This document shows, one piece after another, positions 18,059 to 27,022 of a stretch of 64,000 bases of DNA. This DNA comes from a virus. Its lineage: Duplodnaviria > Caudoviricetes. Below the pieces are notes generated by a model. It was not told the DNA's origin. It did no database searches and saw nothing but the letters and a program-made list of their open reading frames with translations. The position numbers were made by a program, and so were the translations under genes. Positions within the stretch are counted from its first letter, which is position 1; each line of letters opens with the position of its first letter. The stretch is from positions 546-64,545 of the IMG/VR virus record IMGVR_UViG_3300020048_000137; one strand, 5' to 3'.

Positions 18059-18099
18059 TTTGTTCGGTTTTGTTCTTTGTTTGTAATGTATTGATGCTA

Positions 18100-18164
18100 A
18101 GAGACTTAGCGAGCGCACGTTTGTAGTGAAATCTTCCTATGGTTGTCATAACAACTTGTTGTGC
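18100..18164 (+). repeat. Array-start half-site, copy 1
   Basis: 54/61 identical to 26958-27018; ends in core GTT. Confidence 0.85.
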
Positions 18165-21278: not shown

Positions 21279-22046
21279 TCAGATGTCGATGGAGTCCACG
21301 TATGCGCGGTGAATCCGCCCCTGACAGATGGCAAAATACTCCTCGTCGCGCTCGATGCCGATGAAGCGACGACCCGTGTTCATGCAGGCTACGCCCGTCG
21401 TCCCGCTGCCCATCGTGTTGTCGAGGACGAGTTCTTCGGGGTTGGTGTAGGTCTTGGTGAGATACTCCATCAGGGCGACGGGTTTCGCTGTTGGATGGAT
21501 ATTCAGACCGTCGGTTGCAAATTCCAGGACGGTATTAGGGTATCCGGTCTGCTTCTGGACATAAGCTCCGTGGGAAGGACTTTTCCTGAAATGCACATCC
21601 GAATTGCTCTTGCCTTTGTAATCCCGTTTCTCGTTGATTTCGGTCAGACCTTGTGGGAAGTAAGGCATTCTGTTCTCACTCAGATTGGCGTGGTTTGTGG
21701 TGGCCGAACTGAAAACGCACACGTCCTCGTGCTTCTTCATCGGCTTGTTTTTAGCGTGGGCAAAATTCGTCGGGCGGTTCTTCACCCACACCCAGCAATA
21801 CTTGAACATGCTGAGATTCGACGCGATCAGGACACTCGTGAAAGGCTGCGATGCCGTCAGCACAATCGCCGCGTTCTTCTTCGTCACCCGCCGATACGCT
21901 TCCCATAGCGGCTCAAACGGGATGACTGTGTCCCACTTGCACGCAGTCGTCCCATACGGCAGATCGCAGAGGATCATGTCGATGCTCCCGTCGGGAATCT
22001 CTTTCATCCGTTCCAACGTGTCTCCTAGTTTCAGTTCGTAGTTCAT
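21279..22046 (-). CDS. DNA N6-adenine/N4-cytosine methyltransferase (beta class)
   Basis: Catalytic DLPY precedes SAM motif DNTMGSGTTG; HPTAKP. Confidence 0.92.
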   Translation of the reverse strand: MNYELKLGDTLERMKEIPDGSIDMILCDLPYGTTACKWDTVIPFEPLWEAYRRVTKKNAAIVLTASQPFTSVLIASNLSMFKYCWVWVKNRPTNFAHAKNKPMKKHEDVCVFSSATTNHANLSENRMPYFPQGLTEINEKRDYKGKSNSDVHFRKSPSHGAYVQKQTGYPNTVLEFATDGLNIHPTAKPVALMEYLTKTYTNPEELVLDNTMGSGTTGVACMNTGRRFIGIERDEEYFAICQGRIHRAYVDSIDI

Positions 22047-24589
22047 AAATCAGGCATCCTCTCTTCCAAAAGTTCAATCGGGTCATCAAGTCCATCCATA
22101 AACCCGTCGATGCTCACATACACCCGAGTCCGCTCACCGCCGACCTCGAACACCTTTGCGTTCTCGTAAGCACGGTATCCCAAAATGTGCAGGTAATGTG
22201 AAGCCCGTGCATTGTTCCGCCCAAGCAGCGCGGTCTCCCGCTCGACCTGTGCGTAGTGGATCACGTCCTTCCCGATCAGGGGATACGCGGGGTCGGCGAT
22301 GAGGTCTTCGATCTGGATGAGCATGGGGTTCTTGCCAGCATCGACAAGCTCATGGCGGAACACGGTGTCGGGGGCGTGGCCGTTCGGATTGAATGTTTCG
22401 CTGATCTGATATGTCAGGTAGAACTGGCGGAACGCACCGGGGTTATCCCTTATCAGGTCGTGAATCCGTGTGCAGACGCCCGTGTTCAGGAACGCGACGA
22501 CCTGCGACTTCGATTGCAAGCGGCTTTTCAGGATCATGTATCTGCGGTCGCTGTCCTCCAGCACCAGTGCGTCGTGTTTATTTGATGTCACGAAGTAGTT
22601 CGTGACGTTCACGATGTTCCGCAGGTCGCGGAACTTCTGCTGGACGGGGATGCGGTCGTTCGCGATGGCGTCCTTCAAACTGTTGTTGACTTCGTGACGG
22701 TTCGACCCCGCCGAGAAAAGCTCGTCGATGTAATTGAGATGTACACCTTCGCGCCACTCGTCGAACCCGCTGCCCGTCATCTTCGACCCTGTGATGATCC
22801 TGAAATTGGCTTCACCGATGGCGGCTTGCACGGTGTCCATGAGGGTTCCCTTGCCGCAGCCCTGCCCACCTTGGAGGAACGGCGACCACCGGATCTTGTG
22901 ACCCGGACGCTGGACGCAGTAGGCGAGCCAGTCGAGGACGTGGCGAACGTGGTTCTCGTCGGCGAGGTTCGCCCGTAGCAGGGCTAGGATGAGGTTGCCC
23001 GCCCGCTCGGCACCGATGGGGGAAGCGGACGGCACGGAGGACTTCAGGTAGGTGTTCACGAACCACTTGCCGTCCCGCTCAAAGTAAATGTCGTCGCCCT
23101 TTTTCTCCTTGTCCCCGTCGAACGCTTCGCGGGGATCATACACCGAGTCGTCCACGATCTTGATCCCTGCGGTGAACAGGGCATACGAGGATGCGGAGAT
23201 CGGGACATCGCCGTCCGGGGTGACGAGGTTCCGCCCGAACGTGTGGTTGAAAGCATCGGTGGTGTATTCCGCCCCAGTGACAGTGTTCCTGAAACGGTCA
23301 CGCGGACCTATGAAGCAGAACGGCAGCATCCAGGATGGTTTCTCGGCCTTCGCGCCGTCGTGCTTCTCCTGCCTGCGGAGACGTTTCATGTCCTTGAGGA
23401 TGGATGTCTTGCTGACCGACTTCCCGGATCGCTTGACCGCTTTCACGATCATGTCGGCCATCATCTCCTCGTCGGTGTCGGACGGTATGGGGAGCGCGGC
23501 GATCTTGCGGATGCCTTCCCGCAGCACGGTGTCCCCGTCCGTCGCCTCGCACCACTGCGAGAAAGCCGCGACGATTCCGTTAGTGAGTTTCTCGTGCGTC
23601 CACCCGGACTGCATGGCGTGGTGGAACAGGGTGCGGAGGGTGATCGGGTTCCGGCCTTCGGGGTAGGGCTTGAAGCTGCGCCACTTCAGGAGACACTCGT
23701 CCCTGTCCTTGTACTTCGCACCCTGCGACGACCATTCGTGGAACATCTCGAACGCTTCGCGGGCGATGTCCTCCTCGGTGAACTGGTGGCGGAGGGCTGC
23801 GGCGATCTCATACCACTCTCGGTAGCCGCAGTCAGCCGAGATGGCGTAGAGAGGTTCCCGGATGTCGTCGAGCGACATACCCGTTAAGGGTAGATTCAGG
23901 ATGCTGCCCTCCTTCATGTCACCCGCCTCGGGGGTGTAGGCATACCCGCTATCGTCCGGTGTAGGTGACTCGGTCGTCTCGGGCAGGGTCGTAGCGTCGA
24001 GCCGCTTCCCGTCGAGGCGGTCTGCGATCACGGCGTTGTAGTCCTCCCCCTGAAAGTGAAGGGGGCGGTATTGGGGCTGTGAGATGATGAGGGACTCGGG
24101 CTTGCCTTTGAAGGAAGCGGGGAGTCCGAGCAGCCCGATGACGTGCAGCACGGCACGCTTGAATAGCGCGGGTTCCACCGTTAGGCAGTCCACCATGATC
24201 TTGATGCGCGGCTCTGCGGGCGTATGCTTCGCTGTCGTCCATGCCACGAAGTTGTAGGGTGACAGGGCTTCGCGGATCGTGTCCGGCGAATTGAAAAAGT
24301 CGGCGGCTTCCGCACCGTCGAGGTCGATGATGATGAGGTTGAACCCCGTCGCACTTTCGTTCAGCCTTGCACACTCATCTTCTGGGTAAGTGGCAGCACC
24401 GAGCCACGCGCCGTCCTTCAGCTTGTCCCTGTCCGGGTGTGCAAGGAAGTCCCGACGCTTCATCGGGAACGCGACGGGAACGTGGACTTGCGACTGCACG
24501 AGATCCTTGAACGTCTCGGCGGCGAGGAGGCGGACGCGGCCACCTTGAACACTGCGACCACCAAAGAAGCGTGTGGGGGTGTCACTCAT
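22043..24589 (-). CDS. Primase-helicase (PriCT_2-like plus SF3/DUF5906-like ATPase)
   Basis: YREWYEIAAAL...WSSQGAKY; Walker A GGQGCGKGT; NYIDEL; DSDRRY. Confidence 0.88.
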   Translation of the reverse strand: MSDTPTRFFGGRSVQGGRVRLLAAETFKDLVQSQVHVPVAFPMKRRDFLAHPDRDKLKDGAWLGAATYPEDECARLNESATGFNLIIIDLDGAEAADFFNSPDTIREALSPYNFVAWTTAKHTPAEPRIKIMVDCLTVEPALFKRAVLHVIGLLGLPASFKGKPESLIISQPQYRPLHFQGEDYNAVIADRLDGKRLDATTLPETTESPTPDDSGYAYTPEAGDMKEGSILNLPLTGMSLDDIREPLYAISADCGYREWYEIAAALRHQFTEEDIAREAFEMFHEWSSQGAKYKDRDECLLKWRSFKPYPEGRNPITLRTLFHHAMQSGWTHEKLTNGIVAAFSQWCEATDGDTVLREGIRKIAALPIPSDTDEEMMADMIVKAVKRSGKSVSKTSILKDMKRLRRQEKHDGAKAEKPSWMLPFCFIGPRDRFRNTVTGAEYTTDAFNHTFGRNLVTPDGDVPISASSYALFTAGIKIVDDSVYDPREAFDGDKEKKGDDIYFERDGKWFVNTYLKSSVPSASPIGAERAGNLILALLRANLADENHVRHVLDWLAYCVQRPGHKIRWSPFLQGGQGCGKGTLMDTVQAAIGEANFRIITGSKMTGSGFDEWREGVHLNYIDELFSAGSNRHEVNNSLKDAIANDRIPVQQKFRDLRNIVNVTNYFVTSNKHDALVLEDSDRRYMILKSRLQSKSQVVAFLNTGVCTRIHDLIRDNPGAFRQFYLTYQISETFNPNGHAPDTVFRHELVDAGKNPMLIQIEDLIADPAYPLIGKDVIHYAQVERETALLGRNNARASHYLHILGYRAYENAKVFEVGGERTRVYVSIDGFMDGLDDPIELLEERMPDL

Positions 24590-26399
24590 GCGGGATTACC
24601 TCCATGCAGATTTCGATAAACATGGCTGCGAGCGGGGCTACGATGGAATTCCCGTAACCCTTCAAGCGCATCACCCTTGCTTCCGACGTTTCGTTGGCAT
24701 AGCCCGGTGCGCCCGGATCGCAGCTTGGCACCACTCCACGGGGTAGCCCTGCAACCAACGGGGCAGAGCCGCGTTGAGTACGCCGGGCTTTGCCGTCGCG
24801 GCAGGGGATGAGGTCAAAGTCTGACCAGAATCCAGTCCGTCGGGGTCGGTGAGCTTCGCCTGATGACCGAGCATCTGCTGCATCTTCGACCCCGGCAGAC
24901 CCGCTGCGTCGTCGTTCGCTGACGGCGTGAGCCATCCGCTGATCTGCTTCGGCTGAGTCAGTCCAACTTGTCGCCCCAGCTGGTCGAGCCTGTTGCGGAT
25001 GCTGCCGTCCGGGTTCACTCCCGTCTCCGACATTCCCGGCGAGTCCTTGTGATCCCTCGCTCCGGGTGTCGCCCATCCAGCGAGCGTAAAGCACTCCGTC
25101 GCGCTCGTCATAATCGTACCCATCTTGGATGGGGCCGGGACATTCGCAGTCCTCGGCGTAGGTGAGTCCGCAGATGGAGCATTCGTCTCCGGGTTCATCG
25201 TCGCCCCCTCCGAGGCAGTCAGCGGCGAAGGATACGCGTTTCCAACCATCACTGATGCCTGTTCCCCCAAATTCCCCGGCACATACTGGCGACCCATCGA
25301 CTCTCGGTAAGCTATCCGCTTCTCCATCCCCTCTTTCGTGCGAGTCATATTCGTGGTTGTGGGGGTCATCCATCCGCAGATTGGCATCGCAGCCTGCGCC
25401 TCGTGAGTCAGACCCACTTGGGCAAGCCGTCCCGTGATCTTGTCGTAAGCCCTCTGCCCCGGTGTCCACGGGTTGCCCTCCGAGTCCACAAGTCTGTCGA
25501 GGCTGACTCCCGGCTCCGACGTTGCGGGGCTGCGCCATCCGGTGATCGGTGGTTCGGTCAGATGTTGCGCTGTGTGCGCCAGTTGCGATGAATGGTTCGG
25601 TCTCGCCATCCACCGCGCCGAGTATGCTTGTGGATCGCTGCTCCTGGATGCGTTCACGTCCGCGCAGTTCGGTGTCGGCCATCCTGCTATTGGTTGACTC
25701 GCAGCTTCCGCTGCCAGATTCATCTGACCGCCGCCCTTGCGTTTCGCGAAGTGAACCTTCTCGCAGTTGTCCGTGGTCTTCGGAGTGTTCGGAGTGTTCG
25801 GAGTGTTCGGAGTGTTCGGAGTGTTCCACCCCACGATATGCGACCCAGTAGAGCCGCTGCCGGATGTGGGGTGCCCCGATGACGATTCGCTCCCAAGTCT
25901 CCTGATCTCCACGCACAAGCCGTCCTTCGCCGTCCTCCCCCGCGCACGGAGCGCATAGATCGAGGGCTGTGACGGGATAGCCCATTGCTTGCAAGTCCAG
26001 ACATACTCCGGGGAACCATTTTTCCCTTGCAATCTTGCTGCTAACTTGTTCGCCAATAAGGACTGGAGGTCGGCACTCGCTGACAAGGCGTTGAAAGACA
26101 GGCCAGAGGTGTCGCTCGTCGTCGGTTCCTGCTTGCTTTCCGGCGGATGAGAAGGGCTGACATGGGAGGCTGGCTGTCCACACGGGTCGGTCGTCCGGCC
26201 ATCCTGCGAGCTTGAGGGCGAGACTCCAGCCTGATACTCCAGCGAACCAATGTGCCTGCGTAAAACCGCGCAGATCGGATGGTTCGACTTCAGTAATGCT
26301 TCGATCATCGACATGTCCGTAAGGTATTTGTTTGTCCGCGATAAGCTGGCGTACCCACGCCGCTGCCGTTGGACAAAATTCGTTGTAATATGATGCCAT
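24582..26399 (-). CDS. C5-cytosine DNA methyltransferase, large (alpha) chain
   Basis: Motif I FAGVSG, IV LPCQPFS, VI GEQV, VIII HIRQRLYW, X LKGYGNSIV; no motif IX in this frame. Confidence 0.85.
   Translation of the reverse strand: MASYYNEFCPTAAAWVRQLIADKQIPYGHVDDRSITEVEPSDLRGFTQAHWFAGVSGWSLALKLAGWPDDRPVWTASLPCQPFSSAGKQAGTDDERHLWPVFQRLVSECRPPVLIGEQVSSKIAREKWFPGVCLDLQAMGYPVTALDLCAPCAGEDGEGRLVRGDQETWERIVIGAPHIRQRLYWVAYRGVEHSEHSEHSEHSEHSEDHGQLREGSLRETQGRRSDESGSGSCESTNSRMADTELRGRERIQEQRSTSILGAVDGETEPFIATGAHSATSDRTTDHRMAQPRNVGAGSQPRQTCGLGGQPVDTGAEGLRQDHGTACPSGSDSRGAGCDANLRMDDPHNHEYDSHERGDGEADSLPRVDGSPVCAGEFGGTGISDGWKRVSFAADCLGGGDDEPGDECSICGLTYAEDCECPGPIQDGYDYDERDGVLYARWMGDTRSEGSQGLAGNVGDGSEPGRQHPQQARPAGATSWTDSAEADQRMAHAVSERRRSGSAGVEDAADARSSGEAHRPRRTGFWSDFDLIPCRDGKARRTQRGSAPLVAGLPRGVVPSCDPGAPGYANETSEARVMRLKGYGNSIVAPLAAMFIEICMEVIPHE
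24671..26314 (-). CDS. Nested alternative-frame ORF, putative MTase beta chain (547 aa)
   Basis: Open over 1.6 kb in +1 frame; repeated W-x-[TS]-P modules; motif IX-like LNAALPRWLQGYPVEW. Confidence 0.72.
   Translation of the reverse strand: MSMIEALLKSNHPICAVLRRHIGSLEYQAGVSPSSSQDGRTTDPCGQPASHVSPSHPPESKQEPTTSDTSGLSFNALSASADLQSLLANKLAARLQGKNGSPEYVWTCKQWAIPSQPSIYALRARGRTAKDGLCVEIRRLGSESSSGHPTSGSGSTGSHIVGWNTPNTPNTPNTPNTPKTTDNCEKVHFAKRKGGGQMNLAAEAASQPIAGWPTPNCADVNASRSSDPQAYSARWMARPNHSSQLAHTAQHLTEPPITGWRSPATSEPGVSLDRLVDSEGNPWTPGQRAYDKITGRLAQVGLTHEAQAAMPICGWMTPTTTNMTRTKEGMEKRIAYRESMGRQYVPGNLGEQASVMVGNAYPSPLTASEGATMNPETNAPSADSPTPRTANVPAPSKMGTIMTSATECFTLAGWATPGARDHKDSPGMSETGVNPDGSIRNRLDQLGRQVGLTQPKQISGWLTPSANDDAAGLPGSKMQQMLGHQAKLTDPDGLDSGQTLTSSPAATAKPGVLNAALPRWLQGYPVEWCQAAIRAHRAMPTKRRKQG
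25779..25823 (+). repeat. Tandem repeat (TTCGGAGTG)x5
   Basis: Exact 9-bp unit; encodes (HSE)5 in one frame and NTP repeats in the other. Confidence 0.95.
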
Positions 26400-26606: not shown

Positions 26607-27007
26607 GGTGCGGGAGACAGGGTGGTTGTTTGGTGTTTTGGTGTCAATGGCTTTTTTGCAAATTTCTTTCCGAGTAGAACCGGACGGACTTTTTCCAGTA
26701 TCCACGCCATGCCATGAGGCTTCGACTTCCACCCATCTGGCGTGCGTAAGCGGAAATTATTGATGCGATCTCCGCGCTCAATCACCCAAGAGGTGACTTT
26801 ACCAGATGCAAAGTCGTGGTATCGGATCGAGCCTAGCGCGGAACCTTCCCGCAGCGGCGGATTCATTTCCAATTCGCGCAAAACTTCCGGCGTAATCTCT
26901 GCCAGTCGCCGATCACGCTGCACCTGCTGTGATCGCTTTCCCATAGCACTCATTCTTAGAGACTTAGCGAGCGCACGTTTGCGGGAGAATCTTCCCATGG
27001 TTGTCAT
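26603..27007 (-). CDS. Hypothetical protein starting in array-2 half-site
   Basis: MTTMGRFSRKRALAKSL...; ATG overlaps TGA of upstream antisense ORF. Confidence 0.6.
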   Translation of the reverse strand: MTTMGRFSRKRALAKSLRMSAMGKRSQQVQRDRRLAEITPEVLRELEMNPPLREGSALGSIRYHDFASGKVTSWVIERGDRINNFRLRTPDGWKSKPHGMAWILEKVRPVLLGKKFAKKPLTPKHQTTTLSPAP

Positions 27008-27022
27008 AATAACTTGTTCGGC
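26958..27022 (+). repeat. Array-start half-site, copy 2
   Basis: Colinear copy of 18100-18164. Confidence 0.85.

Follow-up and report, generated by a model that had tools for sequence, protein, structure and literature searches.

A single 1.8-kb gene of a tailed phage appears to encode the two chains of one C5 cytosine methyltransferase in two overlapping reading frames of the same strand. The gene lies in a stretch of 64,000 nucleotides (nt), referred to here as the window, which covers positions 546 to 64,545 of the IMG/VR virus record IMGVR_UViG_3300020048_000137 (Duplodnaviria; Caudoviricetes) and comes from a phage genome of 64.5 kb that is complete and bears terminal repeats. According to the two-chain reading, the longer open reading frame (ORF A) would encode the catalytic core, and the nested one (ORF B) would supply an array of recognition modules together with the counterpart of motif IX; on the basis of sequence comparison and structure prediction, a probability of about 0.6 is given to this reading. 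That both frames are protein-coding and under selection can be held with high confidence from the pattern of substitutions. ORF B is in the +1 frame of ORF A because its start lies 85 nt downstream of the A start. Both ORFs were found exactly where a preceding sequence-only reading of the window had placed a frame of 605 amino acids (aa) and a nested +1 frame of 547 aa.

The assignment of chain A rests on its motifs, its profile scores and its predicted fold, which together place it in the C5 cytosine methyltransferase family. The five motifs listed for it by the same reading were all located in the translation: FAGVSGW (motif I), PCQPFS (IV), GEQV (VI), RQRLYW (VIII) and GYGNSI (X). Among 63 A-type sequences, F52 and G54 of motif I are invariant, as are P79, C80 and Q81 of motif IV, the catalytic Cys being that of PCQ; G116, E117 and Q118 of motif VI and R180 and R182 of motif VIII are invariant as well, and G583 and N584 of motif X nearly so. 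A matches Pfam PF00145 with 49.4 bits (cut-off 22) over residues 74–254, corresponding to profile positions 65–218 only, and phrog_363 with an E-value of 1.9e-62; its score against NCBIfam dcm is 32.7, under the cut-off of 100.65. The A profile aligns to residues 3–32 (motif I) and 71–175 (motifs IV–VIII) of M.HhaI. In the AlphaFold2 model of chain A alone, built with 63 homologs, residues 1–190 have a predicted local distance difference test score (pLDDT) above 90, residues 191–525 fall to 30–50 and are predicted to be disordered, a weak hairpin appears at 528–542 (pLDDT 50–59), and the C-terminal helix (588–601) is confident. A Foldseek search with this model returned M.HhaI at the top (E 2e-8) over about 209 of 327 columns, that is to say, over the large domain only. 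Motif IX was not found in chain A, the only motif IX-like element of the gene being in frame B, and no recognition domain was recognised in A between motifs VIII and X, where residues 191–525 are disordered in the model and unconserved except for a cysteine island described below. At the N-terminus (aa 1–45, positions 26265–26399, minus strand), a motif II/III-like segment (YYNE..A..WL...VDERSI) precedes motif I (FAGxGGW), and the strand order beta2-beta3-beta1-beta4 is permuted relative to M.HhaI.

The seven modules that the sequence-only reading had seen in chain B are all present in the translation, six of them as W-x-[TS]-P and one as YPSP, and an eighth element, NPWTP, is also there. The motif IX-like sequence reported from the same frame, LNAALPRWLQGYP, stands at B aa 513–525. 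The most conserved part of the protein is the segment LNxxLxRWLxGxPxxW, and invariant W, P and G columns persist in B across about 30% identity. B matches phrog_1008 and phrog_31772, which PHROGs labels 'DNA methyltransferase', and has no match in Pfam or NCBIfam. The AlphaFold2 model of chain B alone, built with 116 homologs, is confident solely at residues 77–130 (pLDDT 80–89) and 510–540 (pLDDT 82–92). When this model was compared with 48,161 PDB chains, the best Z was 3.2 and no meaningful match was obtained; a structure search with a poor model of the homolog P0005 gave only matches of low template-modelling score.

The nested layout is conserved far beyond this genome. The set ascertained through B comprised 80 viral loci retrieved with the B alignment, three phages and the present gene (84 in all), and in 81 of them A is accompanied by B in the +1 frame, with an overlap of 227–1,732 nt and at least 570 nt shared wherever A is uninterrupted. 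In the remaining three loci (L007, L038 and L081) the layout looks frameshifted, which may reflect sequencing error or natural variation; L081 has an A N-terminus that continues in frame into the B C-terminus. The bias of a search by B was removed by retrieving 80 loci through A alone, with the patterns PCQP[FL]SxAG and FAG[IV][GA]GW. Of 77 such loci, 72 have a +1 frame that stays open along 70% or more of A, and the median open stretch is 936 nt in the +1 frame versus 186 nt in the +2 frame. The nested frame, whose interruption in close homologs the sequence-only reading had named as evidence against itself, is intact in most loci of both sets. The same layout occurs in the cultured phages epsilon15 (389/338 aa), K1ind2 and Klebsiella phage VLCpiM12a, and in Rhodobacter phage RcCWillis and Vibrio phage Vaitephage.

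At the level of the whole family, a search with the B profile yields 33,104 representative clusters with E <= 1e-3, of which 9,266 reach E <= 1e-30. A catalytic domain in the same chain as B was seen in 0 of the best 150 B relatives and in 0 of the 120 listed word-search matches. The +1 frame of A contains 4 stops; among 200 synonymous shuffles of A, the mean was 11.2 and 0 came down to that number. This null is weak, because the residues in the middle of A are themselves dictated by B. Judging from the two sets of loci, the layout is not due to chance. Related genes with this layout are usually annotated as one protein. In GenBank, K1ind2, K1ind3, K1G and K1H have both ORFs annotated, as 'putative C-specific methylase' and an overlapping 'putative Mte8-like protein', and in VLCpiM12a the inner ORF alone is annotated; these entries are annotation without a functional statement, and in the literature that was searched no paper describing this phage gene pair was found.

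The frame under selection was followed by comparison with the nearest relative, L087, which is 86–94% identical in nucleotides in the shared blocks. The alignment was made on nucleotides, blind to frame, and mismatches were counted at A codon positions 1/2/3, position 1 of A being position 3 of B. Over A aa 1–106 the counts are 7/6/17 and over aa 107–190 they are 4/2/9, both with the wobble of A. In the module array they turn to 14/7/2 and in the motif IX region to 12/4/6, with the wobble of B; in motif X, past the B stop, they return to 2/2/8 and the wobble of A. Codon-position entropies (H) taken across the family agree with this comparison. Over A aa 1–106, H3 is far above H1 and H2, and the first approximately 70 residues of B show no B-frame constraint. 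Over A aa 119–154 (B aa 91–126) entropy is flat at about 1.0–1.2 at all three positions, which indicates dual constraint. Beneath LNxxLxRWLxGxP of B, the third position of A is nearly frozen (H 0.56–0.73), and motif X, downstream of the B stop, is under A-only selection. In the middle of the gene, which aligns poorly, codon entropies guided by protein alignment carry a bias, and the frame-blind alignment was relied on instead. The dual coding proposed from the sequence alone is therefore borne out by two measures of selection, each covering both frames.

A start for B is also conserved. Of 67 loci, 57 have a B-frame ATG at +79 to +131 nt, counted from the start of A, and 42 of these 57 carry a Shine-Dalgarno-like GGAG, GAGG or AGGA 4–16 nt upstream of it, often formed by the Arg-Ser codons of the VDERS motif of A; the corresponding control counts for the +2 frame are 2 and 0. 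In the present gene, B-frame ATG codons at +85 and +91 fall within this range of internal starts. Judging from the recurrence of these signals, B has a conserved start of its own.

The modules vary in number and are exchanged as units. Of strict W.[TS]P cores the gene has six, with YPSP in addition, the most among 78 B-ascertained loci, where 2–3 are typical; one A-ascertained locus has seven. Per gene, the number of such cores ranges from 0 to 7, and the longest B relatives have 834 aa. Against L087 and a second relative, L088, the ends and some blocks are 85–94% identical in nucleotides, and other blocks have no detectable similarity. The GWLTP module is absent from L087, and L088 shares the N- and C-terminal parts and has a different module set. 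Whole module cassettes are thus replaced between relatives that are about 90% identical at their ends, and the 'expandable array' of the sequence-only reading fits both the variation in number and the cassette exchange. In some B homologs (P0017, P0112), HNH endonuclease domains are found within the array of modules. A smaller unit is repeated as well, namely 9 nt in tandem and in frame for both ORFs. The homolog P0248 (599 aa) is identical over the aligned A aa 181–605 except that it has three repeat units instead of five; with two units fewer, it shows that the copy number of the repeat varies and neither frame is broken.

The middle of A had been taken earlier for low-complexity filler. For most of its length the segment is an unconserved linker predicted to be disordered, but the description does not hold for the cysteine island (Cys4 island) at aa 381–446, which is under A-frame selection. 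In the A frame the island reads GWKRVSFAADC...DECSICGLTYAEDCECPGP...RDGVLYARW (66 residues). It is 64–86% identical in 14 other A-type proteins whose flanks diverge and are rich in insertions and deletions, and it is also present in L006 and in the canonical single-chain methylase P0262. Against L088 the wobble returns to the A frame here (4/6/12 mismatches), where B is of low complexity. The island has no match in Pfam; a zinc knuckle and a mobile insert are possible readings of it.

The counterpart of motif IX was sought with a profile of 105 canonical single-chain phage methyltransferases, running from motif VIII to the end. In hhalign, the sole alignment of the B C-terminal profile pairs LNPxxsrWLMGyPxeW with LTPxECERLQGFPDdyT, which is the canonical motif IX (P 0.01, 17 columns, probability 4%). 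Moreover, the position of the best-conserved B element relative to motif X is approximately that of motif IX in canonical enzymes. These observations weakly suggest that the C-terminus of B is the best motif IX counterpart for A. The module profile showed no similarity to the canonical methyltransferase profile in hhalign.

Table 1. Features of the overlapping gene and its surroundings; positions are those of the window
Feature	Position	Strand	Description
ORF A	24582..26399	minus	605 aa; predicted C5 cytosine methyltransferase catalytic chain; motifs I, IV, VI, VIII, X
A aa 1–190	25830..26399	minus	predicted folded catalytic domain, pLDDT >90; A-frame selection dominates
A aa 191–525	24825..25829	minus	acidic linker, predicted disordered; out-of-frame reading of the B module array except at the Cys island
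A aa 381–446 (Cys4 island)	25062..25259	minus	CxxC-x7-CxC, ...RDGVLYARW; conserved in the A frame
A aa 526–605	24585..24824	minus	beta-hairpin (DxDxxxCRDGKxR) and motif X helix (GYGNSI)
ORF B	24671..26314	minus	547 aa; +1 frame; 1,644 nt, entirely inside A; virus-rich family without a Pfam model
B aa 1–76	26087..26314	minus	leader; no B-frame constraint
B aa 77–130	25925..26086	minus	helix and beta-hairpin (LQxxLxxxL...GSPEYxxTxKxW...ALRA), pLDDT 80–89; dual-coded over A motifs VI–VIII
B aa 163–500	24815..25828	minus	GW-x-[TS]-P module array (W163, W212, W260, W315, Y361, W414, W461); B-frame selection dominates except at the Cys island
WNTP	25817..25828	minus	core in the B translation
WPTP	25670..25681	minus	core in the B translation
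WRSP	25526..25537	minus	core in the B translation
WMTP	25361..25372	minus	core in the B translation
YPSP	25223..25234	minus	core in the B translation
WATP	25064..25075	minus	core in the B translation
WLTP	24923..24934	minus	core in the B translation
B aa 501–547	24674..24814	minus	SSPAxTxKxGxLNxxLxRWLQGYPxEW and basic tail; motif IX-like; pLDDT 82–92
9-nt tandem repeat	25779..25826	minus	5.3 copies; read as NTP in B and as HSE in A; keeps both frames
Primase/helicase gene	22043..24589	minus	PriCT_2, DUF5906; downstream of A

Taken as a mechanism, the two-chain reading would run as follows. One 1.8-kb gene would give two proteins from nested starts. Chain A, started at 26399, would consist of a large catalytic domain (motifs I–VIII), a long, acidic and mostly disordered tether, and a small hairpin with the motif X helix. 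Chain B, started internally about 85–91 nt downstream in the +1 frame, would consist of a short docking element (helix and hairpin), the variable GW-x-TP array and a C-terminal LNPxxxRWLxGxPxxW replacing motif IX. The two chains would then come together as one enzyme, with DNA recognition provided by B. We infer the assembly of the chains, DNA recognition by the modules and the possession of several specificities from this arrangement. Several results weigh against the two-chain reading. AlphaFold2 models the module array as disordered; profiles of B, of the modules and of the C-terminus found nothing among PDB sequences, and the B C-termini found nothing in Pfam. The alignment to motif IX is short and weak, with the low hhalign probability given above. 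The start of B in this gene has a weak Shine-Dalgarno motif only. Among close relatives, B aa 79–162 keeps the A-type wobble (4/2/9); for B-frame constraint in this stretch, the support comes from the entropies across the family and from the confidence of the fold.

Some of these results would suit a B that is real and independent of the enzyme, a phage protein for DNA binding, regulation or counter-defence overprinted on a part of the methylase gene that tolerates it, the linker. No known domain is detectably similar to B, most of B is predicted to be disordered, its likeness to motif IX is weak, and some homologs carry HNH nuclease domains. Such a protein is unlikely all the same, for in the sampled loci and phages B is nested only in this family of methylases, where it invariably takes the +1 frame and spans nearly the whole of A, while A itself is without motif IX or a recognisable recognition domain and the best-conserved element of B sits at about the place of motif IX relative to motif X. 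Alternatively, A could by itself be a complete enzyme, low or short in specificity, that reads DNA through its C-terminal hairpin, with B only modulating or broadening its targets. The A-frame hairpin (W..D.D...C.DGK.R) is indeed conserved with A-type wobble, and A stays open through the whole linker, so that its N- and C-terminal parts must share one chain. The hairpin is, however, modelled with low confidence (pLDDT 50–59), motif IX was not found in A, and the explanation needs DNA recognition that is independent of B; it is regarded as quite improbable.

A further explanation makes a single polypeptide by two programmed frameshifts, from A to B after motif VIII and from B back to A before motif X. 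The hybrid would have the canonical order of motifs I–VIII, recognition domain, IX and X, and the median distance from motif VIII to the beginning of the first GW core is 13 nt. Against it, a homopolymer run is missing from this interval in 49 of 63 loci, and this absence of a conserved slippery run argues against programmed frameshifting. In addition, B is conserved and confidently folded in the model upstream of the junction (aa 77–130), it has its own start with a Shine-Dalgarno-like motif, and A is open through the whole array, which frameshifting would render needless; a double frameshift is therefore very unlikely. The last explanation, that expression is limited to one frame and that a GC-rich composition or chance accounts for the openness of the other, draws on the G+C content of the region (62%), which lengthens spurious ORFs, and on the several short antisense ORFs present there. 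It is hardly credible beside the shorter median open stretch of the +2 frame (186 nt versus 936 nt for +1), the invariant W/P/G columns of B and the 33,104 representative clusters matching its profile, and it is effectively refuted by the conservation of the layout and by the wobble position, which switches frames along the gene. A pseudogene with two frameshifts was also considered and rejected.

As for the surroundings of the gene, the A stop and the start of the downstream primase/helicase gene overlap by 8 nt (ATGAGTGA), and from this junction the primase/helicase gene appears to be translationally coupled to A. A direct repeat of 67 nt, 87% identical between its copies at 18094–18160 and 26952–27018, brackets an 8.9-kb block with the methylase and primase genes, and the copy at 26952–27018 spans the start of a small ORF (MTTMGRFSRKRALAKSLR).

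The closest published precedent, compared here by description, is M.EcoHK31I, whose beta chain has about 61 aa. This enzyme of E. coli HK31 (recognition sequence YGGCCR; Lee, Kam and Shaw 1995) is described as an alpha/beta C5 methyltransferase in which alpha contains motifs I–VIII and X, motif IX comes from a nested beta, as the sequence-only reading had stated, and activity depends on both chains (PMC2836561, PMC3404938); alpha also holds the recognition domain there, and beta only motif IX (PMC2836561). The present gene resembles it in that the second ORF lies wholly inside the first in another frame. It differs in that the nested chain has 547 aa, 90% of the length of alpha, with the whole candidate recognition array, and in that alpha reads this array out of frame as a predicted disordered tether. 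Another split enzyme is M.AquI, the genes of which are adjacent and are not known to overlap. It recognises CYCGRG and is a two-subunit C5 methyltransferase whose smaller subunit contains motifs IX and X, and no overlap of frames is described for it there (PMC3404938). The likeness lies in the natural split, with recognition and C-terminal motifs on the second chain, and the difference in that motif X stays here on the catalytic chain.

Tandem modules also have a precedent. The C5 methyltransferases of the Bacillus phages SPR, phi3T and rho11s are multispecific; a variable number of short tandem modules stands between their motifs VIII and IX, and these modules share chain and frame with the catalytic core. 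The array described here is likewise tandem and variable in number, with cassette exchange in addition; unlike theirs, its GW-x-TP modules are in the other frame and chain, and no similarity was detectable in the comparison with the canonical profile. The canonical single-chain phage methylases P0262–P0275 differ widely in length, 308–577 aa among those listed, owing to their different sets of in-frame recognition modules, for example VAYRVHGE.STAM.G.G and TLRAEGFDASEDGTG, and these are the in-frame counterpart of the array in frame B. With regard to overlapping genes, Rz1 of phage lambda is short, about 60 codons. Rz/Rz1 is an embedded phage gene pair in the +1 frame whose products work together (PMC6139136). 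In contrast to that pair, about 550 codons are read doubly here, and selection alternates between the frames.

On this basis it is possible, and proposed only tentatively, that these genes form a widespread class of phage C5 methyltransferases, in which one gene is used in two frames over up to 1.6 kb with at least five handovers of selection (A, dual, B, A island, B, A), and in which the nested chain is a cassette-shuffled array of new GW-x-TP recognition modules that would let phages change or multiply their targets by recombination with the catalytic chain untouched. If both chains are made and assembled, the gene would rank with the longest conserved stretches of dual coding on one strand that are known to us in phages. 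Since the frame under selection alternates along it, it offers a natural test bed for the sharing of codons between two proteins. If the two-chain reading is true, a very common family, of about 33,000 representative clusters without a Pfam model, has been missed by routine annotation, and the single experimental case of M.EcoHK31I would be extended to a general phage design in which recognition is placed on a separate, recombining chain. This would bear on the reading of phage methylomes, on the evasion of restriction and on the engineering of split methyltransferases.

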